A stretch of 32,707 nucleotides of DNA from Alphaproteobacteria bacterium (GCA_030743445.1 JASLSL010000111.1:1-32707); one strand, 5' to 3'. Positions 2,996 through 24,335 are shown, counted from the first letter of the stretch. The notes: generated from the letters alone by a model not told the origin. Program-made: numbers and translations.

Positions 2996-4369
2996 TTACG
3001 GCGTCAGCAACGCCGCGATCTCGCGGCAGTCGGCGATCTCCTCCAACCGGTCGATCGCTTCGATCAACGCCTCGCCGTTGGCTTCCGGCAGCGGGTTGAC
3101 GCCGGCCTGCCAGTTCGAGCGGAACTTGGCGAGGTGCTGCTCGCGGGTCAGAGGTTTATCGGGATGGCCGATGACGGTCCCGACGTCGAGCGTGTGCTCG
3201 CCCCCGTCCTCGAGCCGCACCGTGATTCGCTGCGGGACGAGGGCGTTGGGGTCGGGGTTGTCGGTCACGACCACCTCGATGCGCCGCGCGAGCGCCGCGA
3301 CGCCCGGGTCGCCGAGACGGTCGGCGCGGAAGTCCGCGACCTCGACCGCGTCGCGCAACAGCGCCACCGCACCGACATAGGGGATACAGAGCCGTGCATA
3401 GTTCGGCCCTGGATCGTCGATCATCGGCCGGCCAGTGAGCTCGAGGACCAGCGGCGTCACCTCGGCGAGCACATGCGCCACGTCTTCCGGTCCGAAGCCG
3501 TGTTGGCGGCGCAGGGTCAACAGCGCATGGATCGCCCCGTGGCTCGCGCGGCCGGAGGGAAAGGGTTTGTGCGAGATCTTGGCGATCCGCCAGGTCTTGC
3601 CCAGCGCCGGTAGCACGCGGTTGAGATCGTGCCCGCCCTCGAACAGCGCGTAGTAGCCGAACTCCCCTTCGAGCACGTCGTGCGGCCCTGTGACGCCGCG
3701 CGCCGCGAGGTCGCGGGCCATCACCGCCGCCCTGGTGCAGAAGCCGAGCTGCAGGCCGAGGGCAGCCGAGCCCTCGCGGTGCGCCTGCATGGTGCCGGAA
3801 ATCTGGCCGAGCAGCAGGCCGAAGGCGTTGGTCATCGTATCGGCGTCGAGGCCGGAGAGTTTGCCGACGGCCGCGAGCGCGCCGAAGGCGCCGGCCGTCG
3901 CAGGGCGGAAGAAGCTCAAGCCGGTCGTGGCGCCGAGCCCGATGCCGCACGACACGTCGCAGCCGAGCACGACTGCTTCCAGCAGCGCGCGGCCCGACAC
4001 GCCGCCCTGGCGCTCCGCATCGCTCATGGATGCGGCGAGGATCGAGGCCATGGCGTGCACCACCGCGCCCTCGTGGATCGCATCGAACTCGCTGTTGTGG
4101 GTCTGATAGGCGTTGACCATGGCCGCACTCGGCGCCGGCAGCCGCGCGCCGCGGCCCCAGACCGACGCTGCGTCGCCGGCACCCCAGTCGCCCGCCGCTT
4201 CGATCAGCTCGGCGACGTGGGGCCCGGTTGTGCCGGCGATGGCGACACCGAAGCTGTCGAGGATGAAGGTCTTGGCCTTGTCGATCGCCGCCGCCGGGAA
4301 GTCGTCGAAGCCGGTCGTCGCCACGTGGCGGGCAAAGGCATCGATCGCATCCGTTCCGTCGTCACCCAT
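2996..4369 (-). CDS. MmgE/PrpD family protein (copy 1)
   Basis: AKTFILDSFGVAIAG, AAMVNAYQTHNSEFDAIH...H, KPFPSGRASH, and C-terminal GHPDKPLTREQHLAKF; 457 aa. Confidence 0.88.
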   Translation of the reverse strand: MGDDGTDAIDAFARHVATTGFDDFPAAAIDKAKTFILDSFGVAIAGTTGPHVAELIEAAGDWGAGDAASVWGRGARLPAPSAAMVNAYQTHNSEFDAIHEGAVVHAMASILAASMSDAERQGGVSGRALLEAVVLGCDVSCGIGLGATTGLSFFRPATAGAFGALAAVGKLSGLDADTMTNAFGLLLGQISGTMQAHREGSAALGLQLGFCTRAAVMARDLAARGVTGPHDVLEGEFGYYALFEGGHDLNRVLPALGKTWRIAKISHKPFPSGRASHGAIHALLTLRRQHGFGPEDVAHVLAEVTPLVLELTGRPMIDDPGPNYARLCIPYVGAVALLRDAVEVADFRADRLGDPGVAALARRIEVVVTDNPDPNALVPQRITVRLEDGGEHTLDVGTVIGHPDKPLTREQHLAKFRSNWQAGVNPLPEANGEALIEAIDRLEEIADCREIAALLTP

Positions 4370-16345: not shown

Positions 16346-17200
16346 ATGTTCCAAGCGGATTTATTGGCCGGCAAACGGATCCTGATCACCGGCGGCGGCA
16401 CCGGGCTCGGCAAGAGCATCGGCCGGCGCTATGTCGAGCTCGGCGCCGAGCTCGTCATCTGCGGCCGGCGTCTGGAGAAGCTCGAGGAGACCCGGGCCGA
16501 GTTCGAGAAGGATTTGGGCGGCAAGGTGAGTATCCACCGATGCGACGTGCGCGACCCGGACGCGGTCGAGGCGATGATGGACATGATCTGGGCCGACGGG
16601 CCCTTGGACGTGCTGGTCAACAACGCCGCCGGCAACTTCATCGCCCAGACCGAGCGGCTGTCGCACCGCGCGATCGACGCGGTGCTGGGCATCGTGCTGC
16701 ACGGCACCGCCTATTGCACGACGGCGGTCGGACGGCGCTGGATCGACGCCGGGCGCCCGGCGGTGGTGCTGAACATCCTCACCACCTCGGCCCTCCATGG
16801 CGGCGCCTACCGGGTGCCCTCGGCGATGGCCAAGGCGGGCGTGGCGGCGATGATCAAGAGCCTCGCGGTCGAATGGGGACCCATGGGCATCCGCATGGTC
16901 GGCGTGGTGCCGGGGCCGTTCCCGACCCCCGGTGCGGCGACCCGCCTGCGCCCCGAAGGCGCCGGCCAGGCGCCGGAGGAAGACGACGTCCCGCTGCGCC
17001 GGGTCGGCGAGCATAAGGAGCTCGCGGACCTCTGCACCTACCTGGTCTCGGACCAGGCCGGCTACGTCAACGGCGAGATCGTGGTGATCGACGGCGGCAA
17101 ATGGCTGCAGGGGGTCTACGGCGCCTCGATCCGCCAGATGCAGGACTGGGACGACGCCAAATGGGCCGAGGTGAAAGAGCAGACGCGCAAGGGGGCGTGA
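16346..17200 (+). CDS. SDR, 2,4-dienoyl-CoA reductase (DECR)-like
   Basis: TGGGTGLG, ICGRR, NNAAGNF and LAVEWG. SAMAKAG replaces YxxxK, as in DECR-type SDRs. Confidence 0.85.
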   Translation: MFQADLLAGKRILITGGGTGLGKSIGRRYVELGAELVICGRRLEKLEETRAEFEKDLGGKVSIHRCDVRDPDAVEAMMDMIWADGPLDVLVNNAAGNFIAQTERLSHRAIDAVLGIVLHGTAYCTTAVGRRWIDAGRPAVVLNILTTSALHGGAYRVPSAMAKAGVAAMIKSLAVEWGPMGIRMVGVVPGPFPTPGAATRLRPEGAGQAPEEDDVPLRRVGEHKELADLCTYLVSDQAGYVNGEIVVIDGGKWLQGVYGASIRQMQDWDDAKWAEVKEQTRKGA

Positions 17201-17222: not shown

Positions 17223-17294
17223 CGTCATCCCCGCGCAGGCGGGAATGGAATTCAATAATATCAATAGGTTATAAAATGGGGACAGTCCCCATTT
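17223..17294. repeat. Composite intergenic repeat, copy 1: CGTC-tagged REP-like hairpin + IHF consensus + perfect palindrome
   Basis: CGTCATCCCCGCGCAGGCGGGAAT (17223-17246); TATCAATAGGTTA matching WATCAANNNNTTR (17259-17271); AAATGGGGAC-A-GTCCCCATTT (17274-17294). Ungapped match to 23171-23242. Confidence 0.88.
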
Positions 17295-18345
17295 AGGCCG
17301 CGGCGTTGGTCTTCTGGAACTCGGGCGCGACCTCTTGCATAAAGAGGGTCAGGCTGGAGCGCGCCGCCTCGTCCGCCATAAAACCCATGCGGAAGGTCAT
17401 CAGGACGCCGCCGACGTCGATCGCCTCGATCGCCGCGATCTTCTCCGCCACCGTCGCCGGCGAGCCGCAGATCAGCCCGTGCTCCGGCTGGTTGCGCGCG
17501 ACCATCGGGTCGTCGCGCTGCATGATGACGCCCTGCTCCTTCAGCACCCGCTCGCGCATATCGGCGCGCTTCTCGAACTGCTCGACGAAGTGGGCGGTGC
17601 CGATCCTCTCCGCCTCGGCGTCGGTCTCGGCGACGAATATGTTGCGCCACACCCAGGTGTCGTCGACGTTCCGGGCGATCAACGCCTCGTCATGCCCCTC
17701 GTCGCGCATGGTCTGGCGGTAGAGGTCCATGCGCTCCTTCGTGACCCCGTTCGACTGCACGTTCATCAGGAACGGCCGGCCCTCCCTGGCCATCCGGATG
17801 GTCGACTCCTCGCCGGCGCAGGCGCGGATGATCGGCGGGTGCGGCTTGGTGTAGGTCGCCGGGCGCAGCAATGGCAGCCTTAGGTTCCAGTACTTGCCGT
17901 TGTGCTCGTAGTCCGCGGTCGTCCACGCCTTGACCAGGATCTCCTCGGACTCGATCAGGCGCTCCAAGGCCTCGTCCGGGTCGATGTCGTAGCCCTGGTA
18001 GTCGTAGATGTTGTAGGCGGTGCCGCGGCCGAGCCCGACGATCAGCCGGCCGTGGCTGATGTTGTCGATGATTGACATCTGCTCGGCGAAGCGGATCGGG
18101 TGGTGCAGCGACATCTGCGCCACTGCGAAGCCGATCCGGCAGCGCTCGGTGATCATCGCGATCGCGGCGGCGAAGCTGACCGGGTCGACATAGGCGCAGA
18201 TGCCGTCGAAGTGGTGCTCGGCGAGCCACAGCACGTCGACGCCGAGCTCGTCGCTGAGCTTGGCCTCGGCCAGGGTCTCGTCGATGATCCGCGAGTCGTC
18301 CTCGGGCGAGGGGCTCGCGGGGAACAGGAAATTGCTGAATTTCAT
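17293..18345 (-). CDS. LLM-class flavin-dependent oxidoreductase (copy 2)
   Basis: MKFSNF, WLAEHHF, HPIRFAEQ, GRLIVGLGRG, GSPATVAE and LFMQEVAP. Confidence 0.9.
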   Translation of the reverse strand: MKFSNFLFPASPSPEDDSRIIDETLAEAKLSDELGVDVLWLAEHHFDGICAYVDPVSFAAAIAMITERCRIGFAVAQMSLHHPIRFAEQMSIIDNISHGRLIVGLGRGTAYNIYDYQGYDIDPDEALERLIESEEILVKAWTTADYEHNGKYWNLRLPLLRPATYTKPHPPIIRACAGEESTIRMAREGRPFLMNVQSNGVTKERMDLYRQTMRDEGHDEALIARNVDDTWVWRNIFVAETDAEAERIGTAHFVEQFEKRADMRERVLKEQGVIMQRDDPMVARNQPEHGLICGSPATVAEKIAAIEAIDVGGVLMTFRMGFMADEAARSSLTLFMQEVAPEFQKTNAAA

Positions 18346-18383
18346 GGTTGGCAGGCCGTGCGCTTGGTTTCTTGGTTGATCTA

Positions 18384-18410
18384 GCTATAGCGCAGATCGC
18401 CATGCCCTTA
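18384..18410 (-). promoter_or_regulatory. Possible internal promoter for LLM copy 2 (coordinates approximate)
   Basis: Minus strand TTTAAG-N17-TATAGC with GC before the -10; the same layout as 10071-10099. Confidence 0.35.
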
Positions 18411-18415
18411 AAGAA

Positions 18416-19789
18416 TCATTGGCGATGGCCGGAATCGCCGCGCAGCAGGTCCATCAGTCCGGCGACCTCGTCGGCCGACAGCTCGTCGAGCCGGCCCGCG
18501 AGATCGACGATCCGCTCGGCGGTTTCCTCCTCGAAGCGCAGCGCCAGGCAGTCGCGCACCTTGACCAGGTGGTCCGCCTCGGGGATCGGCGGCGTGCCCC
18601 AGATGCCGCGCGGCCCGGTGCAGCGGGTCTCCAGCGCCTCGCCGCCTTCCAGCGTGACCCGCATCTCGACATACATCTGGTCGAACCGGCCCGGGATGTC
18701 GTCGCGCATCTCGAGATCGTATTTCCCGAGCATCGCCTCCATGTCGGGGCTGAAGCGGCGCTCGTCGGTGAAGCTCGAGATCACCACCTTGCCGTCGAGC
18801 AAGGCGCAGGCCGAGGTGTACTGCCAACTGAACTTGCCGTCGAGCCCGTCTGCCGGCTTCGGCCGGTCGATATAGGCCATCATCGGGGTCTTCAGGTGGA
18901 CCCGCTCGATCCGCGACGCATCGCCGATCTTGCCATGCAGCTCCAGCCCGGCGGTAATCACGAAATGGGTGCCGAACTGGCTCGGGAACATCTTGATCGC
19001 GTAGCCCGGGTCGGCGACCCGAAAGGGCGGGCCGTAGTTCAACAGCTCTTGCGTGTCGAAGTCCTTGTCGAAGAAGGTCGCGACATAGCCGCGCGGATCG
19101 TCGAAGGTCTCGGTGTTGCCGGTGAAGCCGCGCGAGGCCAGCAGCGCCGCGTCGAGCCCCATCGCGACGGCGAGCCCGCAATTGGTCGATTTCGACATCG
19201 TGCCGACATTGCCGAGGATGCTGCCAATGCGCGACGAAGTAGTGCCGAGCGCGTTCCGCAGCTGCATCGCGTCGAGCCCCAACAGGTGGCCCGCCGCGAC
19301 CGCCGCCCCCATCGGGCCGACCAGCCCCGGCGGGTGGTAGTGGGTCTGCTTGATGTCGTGCTGGCCCGAGGCGGCGCGAATCCAACCCATCGTCTCGATG
19401 CCCTTGACCATGGCCGTCAAGGCCTCGCGGCCGGGAAGGCAGCGCGCCTCGGCGAGCGCCAGGACCGCCGGCAGCGAGGTCGAGACCTGGTGGTTGGCGG
19501 GCTGCCACATCGGCTCGAAGTCGAGCACGTGCATCGCCGAGCCGTTGACGTAGGCGGCGTTCACCGGCGAGGTCTTGAACCCGAAGCCGATCACCGAGGA
19601 CGTCGGGTTGCCGCCAAGCTCCCGGACGTGCGCGGCGAGAATGCCCGGCGCCTCCTCCTGCACCGTCCCCGCGACCGCCACCGCGACCCCGTCGAGCACC
19701 AGGCGCCGCGCCGCCGCTATCGCGGCCTTGGGCAGATCGTCGTATCCCGTGGCGACGATCTTCTCGGCGAGTTCGGCGGTAACGGTCAT
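18416..19789 (-). CDS. MmgE/PrpD family protein (copy 2, HVLDFEPMW variant)
   Basis: ARRLVLDGVAVAVAG, AAYVNGSAMHVLDFE, KMFPSQFGTH and GKFSWQY. ATG overlaps the stop of the DMT gene. Confidence 0.88.
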   Translation of the reverse strand: MTVTAELAEKIVATGYDDLPKAAIAAARRLVLDGVAVAVAGTVQEEAPGILAAHVRELGGNPTSSVIGFGFKTSPVNAAYVNGSAMHVLDFEPMWQPANHQVSTSLPAVLALAEARCLPGREALTAMVKGIETMGWIRAASGQHDIKQTHYHPPGLVGPMGAAVAAGHLLGLDAMQLRNALGTTSSRIGSILGNVGTMSKSTNCGLAVAMGLDAALLASRGFTGNTETFDDPRGYVATFFDKDFDTQELLNYGPPFRVADPGYAIKMFPSQFGTHFVITAGLELHGKIGDASRIERVHLKTPMMAYIDRPKPADGLDGKFSWQYTSACALLDGKVVISSFTDERRFSPDMEAMLGKYDLEMRDDIPGRFDQMYVEMRVTLEGGEALETRCTGPRGIWGTPPIPEADHLVKVRDCLALRFEEETAERIVDLAGRLDELSADEVAGLMDLLRGDSGHRQ

Positions 19790-20652
19790 AAGCGGCTCTC
19801 CCGGCGGATGCTGTAATAGTTGCCGGCGAAGATCAGCGCCGCCCCCAGGAACACGAAAAACTCCAACGGTTCGTTATAGAGAATGTAGGCGACGAGGGCG
19901 ATCAAGGGCAGGCGCATGAACTCCATCGGCATGACGATGGTCGCGTCGGCATGCAGGAAAGCGTTGGCGAGACTGTAGTGCGCGGTCAGGGCGCAGAGCC
20001 CGACGATCAGCAGCCACGGCAGGTCGGTCCATCCCGGCGTCACCCACTGGAACAGCGCCGGGACCAATCCCATCGGCAGTTGGATCAGCGACATATAGAA
20101 CAGGATCGCGAGCGGCCGGTCGGTCCGGATCAGGGTCTTGGTGCAGACGATCGAGCCGGCGAAACACATGGCGGCGCCGATCATCACCAGGGCGCCGACG
20201 TCGATGATCTCGATCCCCGGGCGCAGGATCACCAATATCCCGACGAAGCCGGCAATCATCGCCACGGCGCGCCCGCGGTTCATGCGCTCGCCGAGAAGCG
20301 TTATCGCCAGGATCGCGGTCCACAGCGGAATGGTGAACTCGATCGCGAACACCTCGGTCAGCGGCAGCAGCGACAGGCCGAGGACCCAGCCGAACTGGCC
20401 GCCGTAATGGATGATGTTGCGACCCACCTGCATCTTCGGCTGGTAGGTGCGGATTTCGCTCCAGCCGACCCGGGCGACGATCGCCACGGTGATGATCAAC
20501 CCGACGAGGCTGCGGAAGAACAGGATCTCGAAGGTTCCCATCGTGCCGTGCAGCTGGCGCACCGCGACCGCCATGACGGTGAAGGACAGCAAGGTGCCGA
20601 TCATCCAGGTCGCGGCCTTGAGGGTGGGGTGGGTCGATTTCCGGCGCGCCAT
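19786..20652 (-). CDS. DMT/EamA family transporter
   Basis: About 10 hydrophobic segments; EILFFRS, FTIPLWTAILA..LLGERM, GILVILRPG and ADATIVMPMEF. Confidence 0.88.
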   Translation of the reverse strand: MARRKSTHPTLKAATWMIGTLLSFTVMAVAVRQLHGTMGTFEILFFRSLVGLIITVAIVARVGWSEIRTYQPKMQVGRNIIHYGGQFGWVLGLSLLPLTEVFAIEFTIPLWTAILAITLLGERMNRGRAVAMIAGFVGILVILRPGIEIIDVGALVMIGAAMCFAGSIVCTKTLIRTDRPLAILFYMSLIQLPMGLVPALFQWVTPGWTDLPWLLIVGLCALTAHYSLANAFLHADATIVMPMEFMRLPLIALVAYILYNEPLEFFVFLGAALIFAGNYYSIRRESRL

Positions 20653-20755
20653 TGGAGAGCCAACCATGCCCCGCGGGGTGGGGCGAGGCAAGGCGTTGCC
20701 AAAACCCGCCGTTCCGGGTCAGATAGGCGCGCTAAATTCAGGGGAGGCGATCGAC

Positions 20756-21538
20756 ATGCGGTGGGCCAGGATCGAGGTGGACGGCGCGGCGGTCCACGGG
20801 ATCGTCGAGGGCGACGAGGTCGAAGTGGTCACCGGCGACCCGTTCGACGGCTACGAGCGGACCGGTAACAGGTTACCGCTCGACGCGGTCAAGCTGCTGG
20901 TGCCGGTAGTCCCGAAGACGTTCTATGCGGCGGGGCTCAACTACCTGGAGCACGTCAAGGAGCAGGCGGCGCTGCGCGGCACCGAGCCCAACATCGCGGA
21001 GCGGCCGGAAATCGGCTACCGCGCCAACAACGCGCTGATCGCCCACGGCGAGGCGATCGTCATTCCCGCCGACGCGACCGACAAGGTCGAGTACGAAGGC
21101 GAAATCGTCGCCGTGATCGGCAAGCAGGCGAAGCACGTCGCCGTGGCGGACGCGCTCGACTGCGTGCTCGGCTACACCATCGGCAACGACGTCAGCGAGC
21201 GCAATTGGCAGAAGTCGGACCGCACCATGTGGCGCTCCAAGAACACCGACACCTTCAAGCCGATGGGGCCGTGGATCGAGACCGATGTCGACCTCGACGC
21301 GCTCGAGACCACGGTGCGGCTCAACGGCGAGGAAATGATCCGCTTCAAGACCAACCACATGCTGTTCGGCATCGAGGCCTATATCAGCGCGATGTCGCAA
21401 TACATCACGCTGCAGGCGGGCGACGTCATCTGGATGGGCACCGAGGGTGCGGCCCGGAACCTCGAGGACGGCGACGTCGTCGAGGTCGAGATCGACGGGA
21501 TCGGCACCCTGAGCAATCCCGTGATCCGGGAAGGCTAG
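20756..21538 (+). CDS. Fumarylacetoacetate hydrolase family protein
   Basis: AGLNYLEH, EYEGE, GYTIGNDVSER, KNTDTFKPMGP and GDVVEVEIDGIGTLSNP; GGAGG SD. Confidence 0.92.
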   Translation: MRWARIEVDGAAVHGIVEGDEVEVVTGDPFDGYERTGNRLPLDAVKLLVPVVPKTFYAAGLNYLEHVKEQAALRGTEPNIAERPEIGYRANNALIAHGEAIVIPADATDKVEYEGEIVAVIGKQAKHVAVADALDCVLGYTIGNDVSERNWQKSDRTMWRSKNTDTFKPMGPWIETDVDLDALETTVRLNGEEMIRFKTNHMLFGIEAYISAMSQYITLQAGDVIWMGTEGAARNLEDGDVVEVEIDGIGTLSNPVIREG

Positions 21539-21540
21539 TA

Positions 21541-21762
21541 CTAGGTCGCCACTAATTCCTTCAGGATACTGCGGCCGGAAGCGGTCAGGCTCGCCTTGTC
21601 GAAGCCTTGACCGAAGGGGGAGAGCCGAATCCAGTTCGCCGCCTTGCATTCCCCGAGCGTGCGGAACAGCAGGGTGCCGTCGTCCTCGCTCGGGACCGCG
21701 ATGTCGCCCGACATCGAGATCAACTCCAGAAGCAATGTCTGCTGCGGCAACGGCTTGGCCAT
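21541..21762 (-). CDS. Small hypothetical protein (73 aa), possibly winged-helix-like
   Basis: ATG after a G-rich SD; protein-like composition; fills the gap between flanking genes; the LTASGRSIL tail resembles a wHTH wing/helix. Confidence 0.6.
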   Translation of the reverse strand: MAKPLPQQTLLLELISMSGDIAVPSEDDGTLLFRTLGECKAANWIRLSPFGQGFDKASLTASGRSILKELVAT

Positions 21763-21930
21763 GGCGGGTCCCCCCTGTTTACCGGCCCATCGTGTCGGCC
21801 CCTCTGGCGGGGGCGCTTCTATTTTCCGGGCACCACAAAACTAGAGGGACCCCGCCGAAGTCAAGGCCCGTGCTGTTCCGCGCCTGGCGATTGGATTAGG
21901 CTCGAAGCGGATCAACGACGGAGGCTTGCG

Positions 21931-22299
21931 ATGATCGACAAGATCCAGGGGTGCGTGAACGGCGACAAGATGCTGATCCGGCGCGGCCGGTTCGTCGATC
22001 TCGCCTTTCTGCTTGGTGTCGGCGACGAGGACTACCTTGTCACCATAGAGAAGGGGCGCATCGCCTCGATCGAGCCGCGTGAGCTCGAGACCATAACCGG
22101 CCAATTCTCGATCCGCGCCGCGTCCGAGGTCTGGCAGGAATTCTGGAAGCCCATGCCGAAGCGCAACCATCACGACATCTGGGCAATGCTGGCGGCGGGG
22201 CTGGTCGAGCTCGACGGCGACCTCGCGCCGTTGATGCAGAACCTGCAGTACTTCAAGGACGTGTTGTCGTCGCCGCGGCCGAAGGCGCGGAGGAGGTAA
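21931..22299 (+). CDS. Hypothetical protein, SCP2 (sterol carrier)-like fold
   Basis: GGAGG SD then ATG at 21931. The pattern VTIEKGRI...FSIRA...VELDGDLAPLMQNLQYFK is SCP2-like. Confidence 0.65.
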   Translation: MIDKIQGCVNGDKMLIRRGRFVDLAFLLGVGDEDYLVTIEKGRIASIEPRELETITGQFSIRAASEVWQEFWKPMPKRNHHDIWAMLAAGLVELDGDLAPLMQNLQYFKDVLSSPRPKARRR

Positions 22300-22303
22300 G
22301 GCG

Positions 22304-23152
22304 ATGCCGGATTACGAGCCGATCGTCGGGCGCTACCTCACCATCGAGGTCGCGGGCGAGGCCTGCCGCATCCATGTCGAGGAGGCGGGCGACGGGATTC
22401 CGCTGGTCTGCCTGCACACCGCGGGCTCGGACGCGCGCCAGTACCGCCACCTGATGTGCGATCCCGCGATCACCGACCACTACCGGGTCATCGCCTTCGA
22501 CATGCCGTGGCATGGCAAGTCGAACCCACCCGTCGGCTGGCGCGACCGCGAGTACAGCCTGACGACCGAGCTCTACAAGGACACCATCATGGCGTTCTGC
22601 CGGGCGATGGAGCTCCGGCACCCGGTGATCATGGGCTGCTCGATGGGCGGGCGCGTGGTCCTCCACCTGGCGCTGGAGCAGGCCGACCGGTTCCGCGCGG
22701 TGATCGCGCTCGAGGGTGCCGACCGGCTCGAGCCCTATTACGAGCTCGATTGGCTGCACCGCCCGGACATCCACGGCGGCGAGGTCTGCGCCGCCATCGT
22801 CTCGGCCCAGGTCGCGCCGCAGAGCCCCGACGAATACCGCTGGGAGACGCTGTGGTCCTACATGCAGGGCGGTCCCGGCATCTTCAAGGGCGATCTCTAT
22901 TTCTACTGGTACGACGGCCATTTCGACGACCGCTCGCCGCTGATCGATACGGACAAGTGTCCGGTTTACCTGTTGTCGGGGGAGTACGACTCGTCCTGTA
23001 CGCCCGAGCGCACGGCGGCGACCGCGTCCCGCATCGCGGGCGCCAAGGCGACGGTGATGGAAGGCATCGGCCACTTCCCGATGTCGGAGAACCCGGCGCT
23101 GTTCCGCACTTACATCCTGCCGGTGCTGGATGAGATCAGGGGTGCGGGGTAG
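22304..23152 (+). CDS. Alpha/beta fold hydrolase
   Basis: LHTAG, DMPWHGKS, GCSMGG nucleophile elbow, GEYD and GHFPMSENP. Confidence 0.9.
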   Translation: MPDYEPIVGRYLTIEVAGEACRIHVEEAGDGIPLVCLHTAGSDARQYRHLMCDPAITDHYRVIAFDMPWHGKSNPPVGWRDREYSLTTELYKDTIMAFCRAMELRHPVIMGCSMGGRVVLHLALEQADRFRAVIALEGADRLEPYYELDWLHRPDIHGGEVCAAIVSAQVAPQSPDEYRWETLWSYMQGGPGIFKGDLYFYWYDGHFDDRSPLIDTDKCPVYLLSGEYDSSCTPERTAATASRIAGAKATVMEGIGHFPMSENPALFRTYILPVLDEIRGAG

Positions 23153-23170
23153 GGCGAAGAATCACGATCA

Positions 23171-23242
23171 CGTCATTCCCGCGAAAGCGGACCCGGCATC
23201 AAGTAAAATCAATGACTTATAAAATGGGGACAGTCCCCATTA
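23171..23242. repeat. Composite intergenic repeat, copy 2
   Basis: CGTCATTCCCGCGAAAGCGG (23171-23190); AATCAATGACTTA IHF consensus (23207-23219); AATGGGGAC-A-GTCCCCATT (23223-23241). Internal offsets are identical to copy 1. Confidence 0.88.
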
Positions 23243-23514
23243 ATTACGATAGACCGGCTCCGCCTGCTCGAGGAAGCTCGCCAGCACGTCGTAGACCATC
23301 AGGTGGTTCTTCTGCTGGAAGCTCGCGTGGCTGATCTCGGGCATCACCTTGAACTGCTTCGACGGGTTCGCCAGGAGCTTGAAGAACTCGAGCAGATCGA
23401 CGATCCCGGCGTGCCCTGGTACTTCTCCCAGAGGAAGAGCTTGATATCGCCCTTGTTGGTCCAGTGCGCCTCGCCGGTCACCGATGGATCGGCCTGTTGC
23501 GGTGCCTGGCTCAT
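23240..23514 (-). pseudogene. Alpha/beta hydrolase remnant with a large internal deletion and frameshift
   Basis: ATG at 23514 gives MSQAPQQADPSVTGEAHWTNKGDIKLFLWEKYQGTP (hydrolase-like N-terminus). Near 23405 this joins, in another frame, DLLEFFKLLANPSKQFKVMPEISHASFQQKNHLMVYDVLASFL (C-terminus with catalytic-His region). Total length is only 275 bp. Confidence 0.75.
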
Positions 23515-23525
23515 GTTCCCCGTCC

Positions 23526-24296
23526 TCAGAATCCGATCTGCGAGCCGCCGCAGATGTTGAGGTGCTGCCCGGTAACATAGCTCGCCGTGTCGCTCAGCAG
23601 GAAGCACACCGGGCCGGCGACTTCGTCGGGCGTGGTCATCCGGCCCATCGGAATCCGCGCCATCGTCTGCTCGATGAATTTCGGGCCGCGGACGACCTCG
23701 GTCATCTCGGTCTCGACGGTGCCGAAACAGACGCTGTTGACGCAAATGCCGTAGCGCGCCCACTCGTGCGCGGCGCTCATGGTGATGCCCAGCACGCCGG
23801 ATTTGGCGGCGCCATAGTTGATCTGGCCGATGGTGCCGCGCCGTCCCGCGACCGAGGAGACGTTGACGATACGCTTCGGGCTGTCGTCGCCCTCGCCGGC
23901 GCGCTCGCGCATATGGCGGCCGACCGCCTGCAGGCAGACGAACACGCCCGTCAGGTTGACGTCGATCACCGCCTGCCAATCGGCGAGCGACATCTTGTGC
24001 GCCATCGCCGCGCGGACGATGCCGGCGTTGTTGTAGAGCCCATTGATGGCGCCGTGCTTGTCGATCACGGCCGCGACCGTGTCCTGCACGAATTTCGGGT
24101 CGGCGACGCTGCCGACGTGGAGGTTGGCGCCGTTCTCGAGCATGCCCTGGGTTTCCTTCAGGCCATCCTCGTTGACGTCGACCAGGGCCAGCGTCGCGCC
24201 CAGCGCCGACGCCTTCGCCGCCACCGCCTGGCCGATGCCCTGCGCCGCACCGGTCATCATGATCACGCGCCCCTCGAGGCTCATCGGGTTTTCCAT
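23526..24296 (-). CDS. SDR, 3-oxoacyl-ACP/CoA reductase (FabG-like)
   Basis: TGAAQGIG, NNAGIVR, NVSS, GQINYGAAK and SYVTGQ. AGGA SD before MENPMS; alternative start at 24317. Confidence 0.9.
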   Translation of the reverse strand: MENPMSLEGRVIMMTGAAQGIGQAVAAKASALGATLALVDVNEDGLKETQGMLENGANLHVGSVADPKFVQDTVAAVIDKHGAINGLYNNAGIVRAAMAHKMSLADWQAVIDVNLTGVFVCLQAVGRHMRERAGEGDDSPKRIVNVSSVAGRRGTIGQINYGAAKSGVLGITMSAAHEWARYGICVNSVCFGTVETEMTEVVRGPKFIEQTMARIPMGRMTTPDEVAGPVCFLLSDTASYVTGQHLNICGGSQIGF

Positions 24297-24335
24297 CGCA
24301 TCGTCCTTTCGCCGCATTGTGTGTTCCCTAAGCCG

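Follow-up and report, generated by a model that had tools for sequence, protein, structure and literature searches.

A 72-bp repeat between convergent genes of an alphaproteobacterium as a probable juxtaposition of two REP-type families

Contig C111 of a draft alphaproteobacterial genome (GCA_030743445.1, JASLSL010000111.1:1-32707), the 32,707 nucleotides of which we call the window, contains a 72-bp sequence that is present twice, in the same orientation and 5948 bp apart, at positions 17223-17294 (copy A) and 23171-23242 (copy B). The genome itself (G000) is a 3.03-Mb assembly of 365 contigs, with 65.9% G+C and 70% completeness. Both copies lie between convergent open reading frames (ORFs). 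A plus-strand gene for a short-chain dehydrogenase (SDR; 16346-17200) ends 22 nt before the CGTC-tagged hairpin with which copy A begins, on the side of its AT-rich arm, and a luciferase-like monooxygenase gene comes towards it on the minus strand (17293-18345), with its TAA stop codon (17293-17295) overlapping the extended palindrome that closes the copy (TAAATGGGG…). Copy B has an alpha/beta-hydrolase gene on its arm side (22304-23152, plus strand) and, on the other, a minus-strand ORF of 112 amino acids without a Pfam hit (23240-23578), whose TAA stop overlaps the end of the palindrome; its C-terminal frame was identified by eye. An earlier note on this DNA had presented the two copies as one tripartite element, made of a hairpin resembling repetitive extragenic palindromes (REPs), a site for the integration host factor (IHF) and a perfect palindrome. 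What it says of the sequence holds throughout, save for the implied unity of the element: realignment returned the ungapped match, with 56 of 72 positions identical, at the spacing just given, and ORF and Pfam context placed both copies between convergent genes. A scan of the window against Rfam at gathering thresholds gave no match.

The two copies share the opening CGTCAT[CT]CCCGCG.A.GCGG. In copy A this is a CGTC-tagged hairpin (17223-17246, plus strand), where the tag is followed by ATCCCCGC, a GCAG loop and GCGGGAAT, with one mispair. Its counterpart in copy B (23171-23194, plus strand) is a remnant that reads CGTC, ATTCCCGC, GAAA and GCGG, then ACCC; it keeps just four of eight stem pairs because its 3' arm is degenerate. 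An AT-rich arm comes next on the same strand, at 17247-17274 in copy A and 23195-23222 in copy B; in the former, an (A/T)TCAAT motif occurs twice in direct orientation, at a distance of about 11 bp, and TTATAA adjoins the palindrome. Within the arm, at +36 from the start of each copy, lies a match to the IHF consensus WATCAANNNNTTR, in the form TATCAATAGGTTA in copy A (17259-17271, plus strand) and AATCAATGACTTA in copy B (23207-23219, plus strand); the two 13-mers differ four times, at the W and at three N positions, as had been noted before. The perfect 19-bp palindrome AATGGGGACAGTCCCCATT, centred at +61 as the earlier note had it, follows in both (17275-17293; 23223-23241), within an identical 25-mer, and in copy A an extra A:T pair extends it to 21 bp (17274-17294). 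It is this palindrome that we take for the REP hairpin proper, the CGTC hairpin belonging to a separate family.

The recurrence of the palindrome is far beyond chance. The assembly holds 19 exact copies of the 19-mer, and 21 if one mismatch is allowed, while a reversed-pattern control gave none. What is repeated is a unit of about 50 bp, composed of an AT-rich arm of about 30 bp, with a consensus of roughly GAATCAnnTAAAATCAATnACTTATAA, and of the palindrome, usually followed by TA. None of the 21 units lacks the arm, whose side relative to the palindrome never changes; with the units oriented alike, the central base of the palindrome is an A in 20 of them. A profile of the unit recovers exactly these 21 copies, none of them decayed, and searching the genome with the arm alone gave no convincing extra copy, nor was there any copy of half a palindrome. 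Conservation is very uneven along the unit, mean pairwise identity among the 21 falling from 98.5% for the palindrome to 58% for the arm and 26% for the flanks; departures from the consensus number 3/399 in the palindrome versus 214/693 in the arm (Fisher P = 6e-44). Portions of the literature on REPINs, the paired form of REPs, describe such a contrast between a conserved REP and a less constrained spacer.

The CGTC hairpin has a history of its own. The genome contains 35 exact heads of this family and some 50 looser matches, with the consensus CGTC-ATTCCCGC-GAAA-GCGGGAAT-CCA, in which a stem of 8 bp, with AT at its start, encloses a loop of 4 nt and a CCA tail follows; most copies continue as …GGGAATCCATGCCTGAG…(variable)…CTCAGGCATGGATTCCGG, and matches are also found in several relatives of the genome. 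The same tag, AT-starting 8-bp stem, 4-nt loop and CCA tail define the CGTC-1 REPs, a class that includes the Neisseria dRS3 repeats and which, in the portions of the source used here, is drawn mostly from Alphaproteobacteria and comes without a dedicated transposase (Di Nocera et al., 2013; PMC3733652). As far as sequence can tell, the CGTC hairpin of the window fits this described class, and would be old and common to relatives. The likeness covers the first module of each copy (17223-17246; 23171-23194) and excludes the palindrome unit. Both window hairpins differ from the class in being damaged, by one mispair in copy A and by loss of the 3' arm in copy B, and in lacking the usual continuation of most copies in the genome (…CCATGCCTGAG…CTCAGGCATGG…). 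A CGTC hairpin stands beside the palindrome unit in just two of the 21 units, both in the window. The single colinear tripartite family of the earlier note thus dissolves: the CGTC hairpin is independent and more abundant, and 19 of the 21 palindrome units do without it.

We therefore consider it probable that the 72-mer is a juxtaposition, in the narrow interval between convergent genes, of a hairpin of the CGTC-1 class and a unit of about 50 bp of the REP/REPIN type mobilised by REP-associated tyrosine transposases (RAYTs). An eye-catching repeat that resolves into two ordinary REP-type families need not count as a new architectural element. One feature fits this less easily. In both copies the unit starts at +24 from the CGTC tag (17246/17247; 23194/23195), although to the left of the tag the two copies are unrelated. 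The composite may have been copied in one piece, or this spot may be one that the unit prefers; the coincidence is left unexplained by the view that the two are chance neighbours, even though two chance encounters among 21 units are, on a rough estimate, unsurprising because there are about 50 CGTC repeats and few convergent spaces.

A third repeat (…CAAAATA[AC]GGGGA[CT]ACGATGGTGAAG…) is seen to interrupt CGTC hairpins of this genome right after GCGG, in contig C256 (minus strand, about 6430) and twice in C101 (about 5000 on the plus strand and 2350 on the minus strand). The interruption point is that at which the CGTC hairpin of copy B breaks off, and the repeat may be an element inserting into CGTC REPs.

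Folded alone as DNA, the palindrome of the unit closes a 3-nt loop with a stem of 9 bp, at -7.3 to -8.3 kcal/mol (z of about -2.5 to -3.1); for the palindrome of copy A the energy is -8.0 to -8.3 kcal/mol. Six of the units are arranged as three inverted doublets, with their arms inward and 69-104 bp apart (C129, 3222/3291; C145, 206/310 and 2224/2327); the two doublets that were folded make single long hairpins (-26.5 and -29.1 kcal/mol, z of -8.5 and -6.9). Across lineages, the bases at the three positions bordering the 19-mer change in complementary fashion (TAA/TTA, GAA/TTC, GGA/TCC, AAA/TTT), an argument for a hairpin. Such an arrangement might evoke the solo ends, or a miniature inverted-repeat transposable element (MITE), of a transposon unrelated to the Y1 enzymes, with the palindrome made of two fused terminal repeats and TA duplicated at the target. 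Many palindromes, in this genome and elsewhere, do have TA on at least one side; the units stand out as AT-rich against a genome of 66% G+C; and doublets carry inverted arms. Such an origin is nevertheless most improbable: TA is self-complementary, the outer flanks seen elsewhere (GAA/TTC, GGA/TCC, AAA/TTT) are complementary and not direct repeats, copies reduced to an arm or half a palindrome are missing from the genome, and the genes flanked by the palindrome in other genomes encode Y1 enzymes. A TA target-site duplication was accordingly rejected, the outer flanks covarying as parts of the palindrome. Nor was any larger element found that would be bounded by units and encode a transposase. 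A fourth pair of units, 767 bp apart in C253, was tried as a composite element and rejected: each unit follows the 3' end of the outer gene (HldE-like on one side, redoxin on the other) and belongs to it, and the interval holds a small ORF and an MmcB-like gene. In coordinates, the genes between these inward-facing units are a small hydrophobic ORF (L126:3468-3600) and the MmcB-like DNA-repair gene (3611-4099). An integron attC site, a DNA-uptake sequence and the operator of a palindrome-binding regulator were dropped likewise, for want of R''/R' cores, for far too few copies and for the location at 3' ends.

The link with RAYTs comes from other organisms that carry the same palindrome. The richest is a Usitatibacteraceae metagenome-assembled genome (MAG; G041), with 99 copies, mostly as inverted pairs 49-73 bp apart. 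A single gene of this MAG matches Pfam Y1_Tnp (L135:1465-2184, 239 aa); a doublet of palindromes precedes it by about 95 bp, and a further palindrome lies over its stop codon. The protein retains the HUH motif as NHVHLL and the catalytic tyrosine in RYIELNPV, and it passes the NCBIfam model of REP-associated tyrosine transposases, NF047646 (82.8 bits for a cut-off of 80). In a Novosphingobium MAG with 10 copies (G043), the best Y1 gene has three palindromes with 0-1 mismatch upstream and a degenerate one downstream. Of a second set of five genomes, two (G089, G090) have a Y1 gene with the palindrome, at 0-2 mismatches, on both sides; in G091 the variants on both sides differ by one mismatch, and in G092 a two-mismatch variant is accompanied by GGGGACAG/CTGTCCCC pairs on both sides. 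Altogether six of the nine other palindrome-bearing genomes examined display this REPtron-like flanking of RAYT genes by exact palindromes or by palindromes with at most two mismatches. The earlier note had proposed to look for a RAYT or other HUH transposase flanked by the repeat; this is what those six genomes offer, while the sole Y1 homolog of the present genome is unflanked. Its reading of the repeat as a non-autonomous, REP-type assembly of two unrelated palindromes was right as to the kind, the units being plausibly non-autonomous and mobile, but is not supported in making of it one element.

RAYT homologs of relatives of G041 share 40-52% identity with its own. Related hairpins with a GGGGWCAG core flank RAYT homologs at 19 further loci, and often directly adjoin the stop codon; the exact palindrome is found once, in one of 40 such relative genomes. 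A RAYT tree of 36 aligned cores (a quick method, with support from the Shimodaira-Hasegawa-like approximate likelihood ratio test, SH-aLRT, only, and a midpoint root) clusters its eight palindrome-flanked rows beyond what shuffled labels give, 10 of 500 shuffles being as low. Its well-supported branches force at least three changes, and nearest neighbours include paralogs with other REPs. Two RAYT homologs, L156 (G053 C1:2734551-2735243) and L155 (G066), have an internal stop codon (TGA and TAA, respectively) and still have their REP flanks; the REP of G053 is the close variant AAAAGGGGACTGTCCCCTTTT.

The situation is less favourable at home. The only Y1 homolog of the present assembly (C239:7744-8166; L132:1015-1830, minus strand) encodes 271 amino acids, 35% identical to the RAYT of G041. 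It has RYQ in place of the HUH motif, has lost the catalytic tyrosine and ends in an HTH_28 domain, so that it looks like a domesticated or dead relative of RAYTs. With its helix-turn-helix (HTH) domain and no REP nearby it resembles RAYT subclass 2.1, HTH-bearing and without REPs in the portions of the study of Quentin et al. used here (PMC6006769).

Several observations weigh against a REP/RAYT origin of the units and should be set out together. No active RAYT, a defining component of such systems, was found in this assembly, although the gap may reflect its 70% completeness, and no palindrome lies within 1.4 kb of the C239 homolog. A scan of metagenome contigs with a 25-mer spanning arm and palindrome gave four short contigs, two of this organism and two with further copies of the unit, and no RAYT. 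Contigs of four other samples revealed neither insertion polymorphism nor an empty site, which is decisive neither way: one 404-nt contig of sample X5 bridges copy A unchanged, contigs break at the palindrome of copy B, and the joints between copies A and B are cross-matches of the repeat. With 15 singlets and six members of doublets, the 21 units are unlike classic REPIN populations. The palindrome has at neither foot the GT[AG]G of canonical REPs (no GTAG or GTGG). Near-perfect conservation of the palindrome without a RAYT could mean a host function instead. Of the nine other genomes, three lack a clean RAYT link: a Thermoanaerobaculia MAG with eight copies (G042), the RAYTs of which are flanked by other REPs; G093, without any Y1 match; and a Lachnospiraceae isolate with 21 copies (G045), where the association, cut by contig ends, is with an IS200-type transposase alone. 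Finally, many matches in other phyla are single-copy, possibly unrelated hairpins. Part of this is familiar from REPs described before. Atypical REPs without the GT[AG]G foot exist (PMC6006769), as do untagged families (PMC3733652), and both kinds are poorly catalogued as far as the portions of these two papers used here go. Having neither the GTAG nor the CGTC tag by which REPs are catalogued, the palindrome hairpin is a modest addition, a little beyond routine.

The isolate G045 deserves a word of its own. Two IS200-type tnpA copies (L189:1-420 and L194:1-420) have a left end in common, which extends into the palindrome; in L189, about 85 nt of other DNA interrupt the palindrome at its apex. 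The repeat is there a 31-bp perfect palindrome, ATGTGC and GCACAT enclosing the 19-mer. Contig ends truncate both tnpA copies, so that neither the right end nor the true boundary is in view. The palindrome at the left end of an insertion sequence (IS) is reminiscent of IS200/IS605 elements, which carry at that place the terminal hairpin recognised by their Y1 transposase; the units of the present genome differ in that they enclose no transposase.

Beyond the genomes just discussed, the exact 19-mer is found in at least 125 loci of a collection of species-representative genomes, against about 4 expected in random sequence (2 x 596e9 / 4^19); the loci are not independent, because several of the Collinsella matches are one orthologous locus, and some may be unrelated hairpins, since hairpins are common after genes. 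Record titles, among the matches listed, span many phyla. In other lineages the palindrome is often within a few bases of a stop codon, and the DNA around it is lineage-specific: TGTAACA…TGTTACA in G041, cctagcaaaaggggcc in Steroidobacteraceae, ATGTGC/GCACAT in G045. Searched for exactly or with up to two mismatches, the palindrome was found in none of 40 relatives of the genome (24 of the same family, 16 of the same order), and viral contigs gave no exact match to the 19-mer. Searching the literature by sequence retrieved no microbial paper with the palindrome, only unrelated mammalian and human-cell studies, in a scope that left aside the supplementary tables of REP papers.

Within the present genome, the position of the units is as regular as their sequence. 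Every palindrome copy examined sits between ORFs. Genes near the units were called by a crude rule of G+C content at third codon positions (GC3), which antisense frames also pass, so that the counts that follow are approximate. By script, 13 of the 21 palindromes have the end of a long high-GC3 ORF, pointing at them, at a distance of 2-17 nt; copy B was added by eye. Where the stop is at most 6 nt from the palindrome it is TAA in 10 of 11 cases, versus 18% in a background set that includes some antisense frames (227 of 1240 long high-GC3 ORFs; binomial P = 4e-7). The genes concerned are ordinary (SDR, monooxygenase, hydrolase, HldE-like, redoxin, MmcB). At copy A, the monooxygenase has a C-terminus of the same length as six orthologs from relatives, and the unit is absent behind the gene at seven of seven loci of relatives; the comparison bears on the monooxygenase 3' end only, because SDR/monooxygenase synteny is not kept.

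Such a location brings transcription to mind, and the unit might be chiefly an intrinsic terminator, possibly bidirectional, or a stabiliser of mRNA 3' ends, multiplied because it is useful, its link with transposases being incidental. In about two-thirds of the copies the hairpin begins 2-17 nt past a stop codon; read from gene to palindrome, TTTATAA comes after the stem; in Firmicutes and Actinobacteria the 19-mer often tops a longer perfect stem with a run of T behind it; and roles of this kind have been reported for REPs, in the portions of the source used here (PMC3733652). Yet a scan for consensus terminators (at least 5 T in 8) retained neither of the two window copies, while it retained 10 other sites between 16000 and 24500; the T-tract is short and partly paired with the upstream A's; and the copy of C153 lies just behind a canonical terminator, hence is unneeded there. 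Selection for termination would account neither for the identical 19-mer and common 30-bp arm of 21 copies nor for palindromes beside RAYT genes. As an origin of the units this is very unlikely, and a terminator role fits better as a possible side effect than as a competing origin.

The AT-rich arm raises a different question, that of architecture. E. coli BIME-1, a bacterial interspersed mosaic element, is organised as REP Y, an L motif with an IHF site, then REP Z1. By analogy with these elements, also known as RIB, arm and palindrome could form a module selected by the host, in which IHF or an HU-like protein would bend the arm at convergent ends. The arrangement resembles BIME-1/RIB in that a REP-type palindrome adjoins a match to the IHF consensus at the 3' ends of transcription units, mostly between convergent genes. 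The consensus WATCAANNNNTTR is matched exactly in 12 of 21 units and in a fixed register, the 13-mer starting 16 nt before the palindrome, out of 50 matches genome-wide on both strands; no fewer than 19 of the 21 units keep its T, C, A, A, T, T and R while the W and three N positions vary, in line with the expectation of the earlier note; and the palindrome stays nearly perfect though no active RAYT is seen. But nine of the 21 units deviate from the consensus, most often at position 2, where an A is specified and the units have 12 A, 8 T and 1 C; and the first N position, T in 19 of 21, is as conserved as the core. Conservation is in itself a weak argument, because copies share descent; the pattern in the arm could come from this shared descent or from a constraint tied to the transposase. 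Two genes of the HU/IHF family were found, which score best as HU and reach at most 78 bits against IHF cut-offs of 111-120, a negative that is not decisive since part of the genome is missing from the assembly. In other lineages, quite different arms, without an IHF-like motif, accompany the palindrome. As for a BIME-1/RIB-like architecture, it does not hold: 15 of the 21 units are singlets, an exact IHF site is present in one of the six arms of the three doublets, the layout that BIME-1 requires, so that in most copies the IHF-like site is not between two inverted REPs, and no IHF gene is recognised. The case for IHF binding at the arm is accordingly weak, and a host-selected architectural module seems to us rather unlikely.

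We come back to the REP/REPIN reading of the palindrome unit. It shares with the REP/REPIN-RAYT systems of E. coli, Pseudomonas and Stenotrophomonas the short extragenic palindrome in tens of copies, downstream of genes or between convergent ones and sometimes on a stop codon, the inverted doublets, the conserved hairpin with a looser spacer, the patchy distribution, and the flanking of single-copy RAYT genes, seen here in six other genomes. It differs from them by the lack of a 5' GT[AG]G foot, by a perfect stem without a bulge, by the dominance of singlets and by the absence of an active RAYT among the genes found. Another difference is that REPs are usually lineage-specific, whereas an identical 19-mer occurs here in several phyla, with RAYTs from at least two to three parts of the tree.

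The biochemistry of E. coli TnpA-REP and of the IS200/IS605 TnpA enzymes is established, and a scenario may be built upon it. The palindrome would fold as a hairpin on single-stranded DNA at the replication fork; a RAYT, which is a Y1 HUH enzyme, would bind this hairpin, then cut and rejoin the strand by means of its HUH motif and tyrosine. Units, and inverted doublets in the form of one long hairpin, would thereby be copied to new extragenic places, and the survivors would be those that landed just past a stop codon, where they are harmless. There the hairpin may also act as an RNA structure at the 3' end. That the units of the present lineage were mobilised in this manner by a RAYT is what we infer. 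A more ambitious proposal, which we find conceivable though doubtful, is that AATGGGGACWGTCCCCATT is an untagged, perfectly palindromic hairpin recognised by several RAYT clades of Proteobacteria and Myxococcota and by an IS200-type TnpA of a Firmicute, so as to seed separate multi-copy families in distant phyla, each with its own arms, landing on the stop codon or supplying it (TAA here); in this marine lineage, the host or an enzyme acting in trans would keep it, nearly invariant, as a 3'-end hairpin, perhaps with an arm bound by IHF or HU. The presence of an identical 19-mer with Y1 transposases in several phyla bears on the evolution of hairpin specificity in HUH enzymes, and the tight association with TAA, together with strong conservation while no active RAYT is seen, makes a possible case for what maintains orphan REPs.

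A last remark concerns the surroundings of copy B. Behind the 112-aa ORF lies a second SDR gene (23526-24317, minus strand); the start of the ORF overlaps the end of this gene by about 50 nt, and long ORFs run in other frames of the same region (23344-23979).

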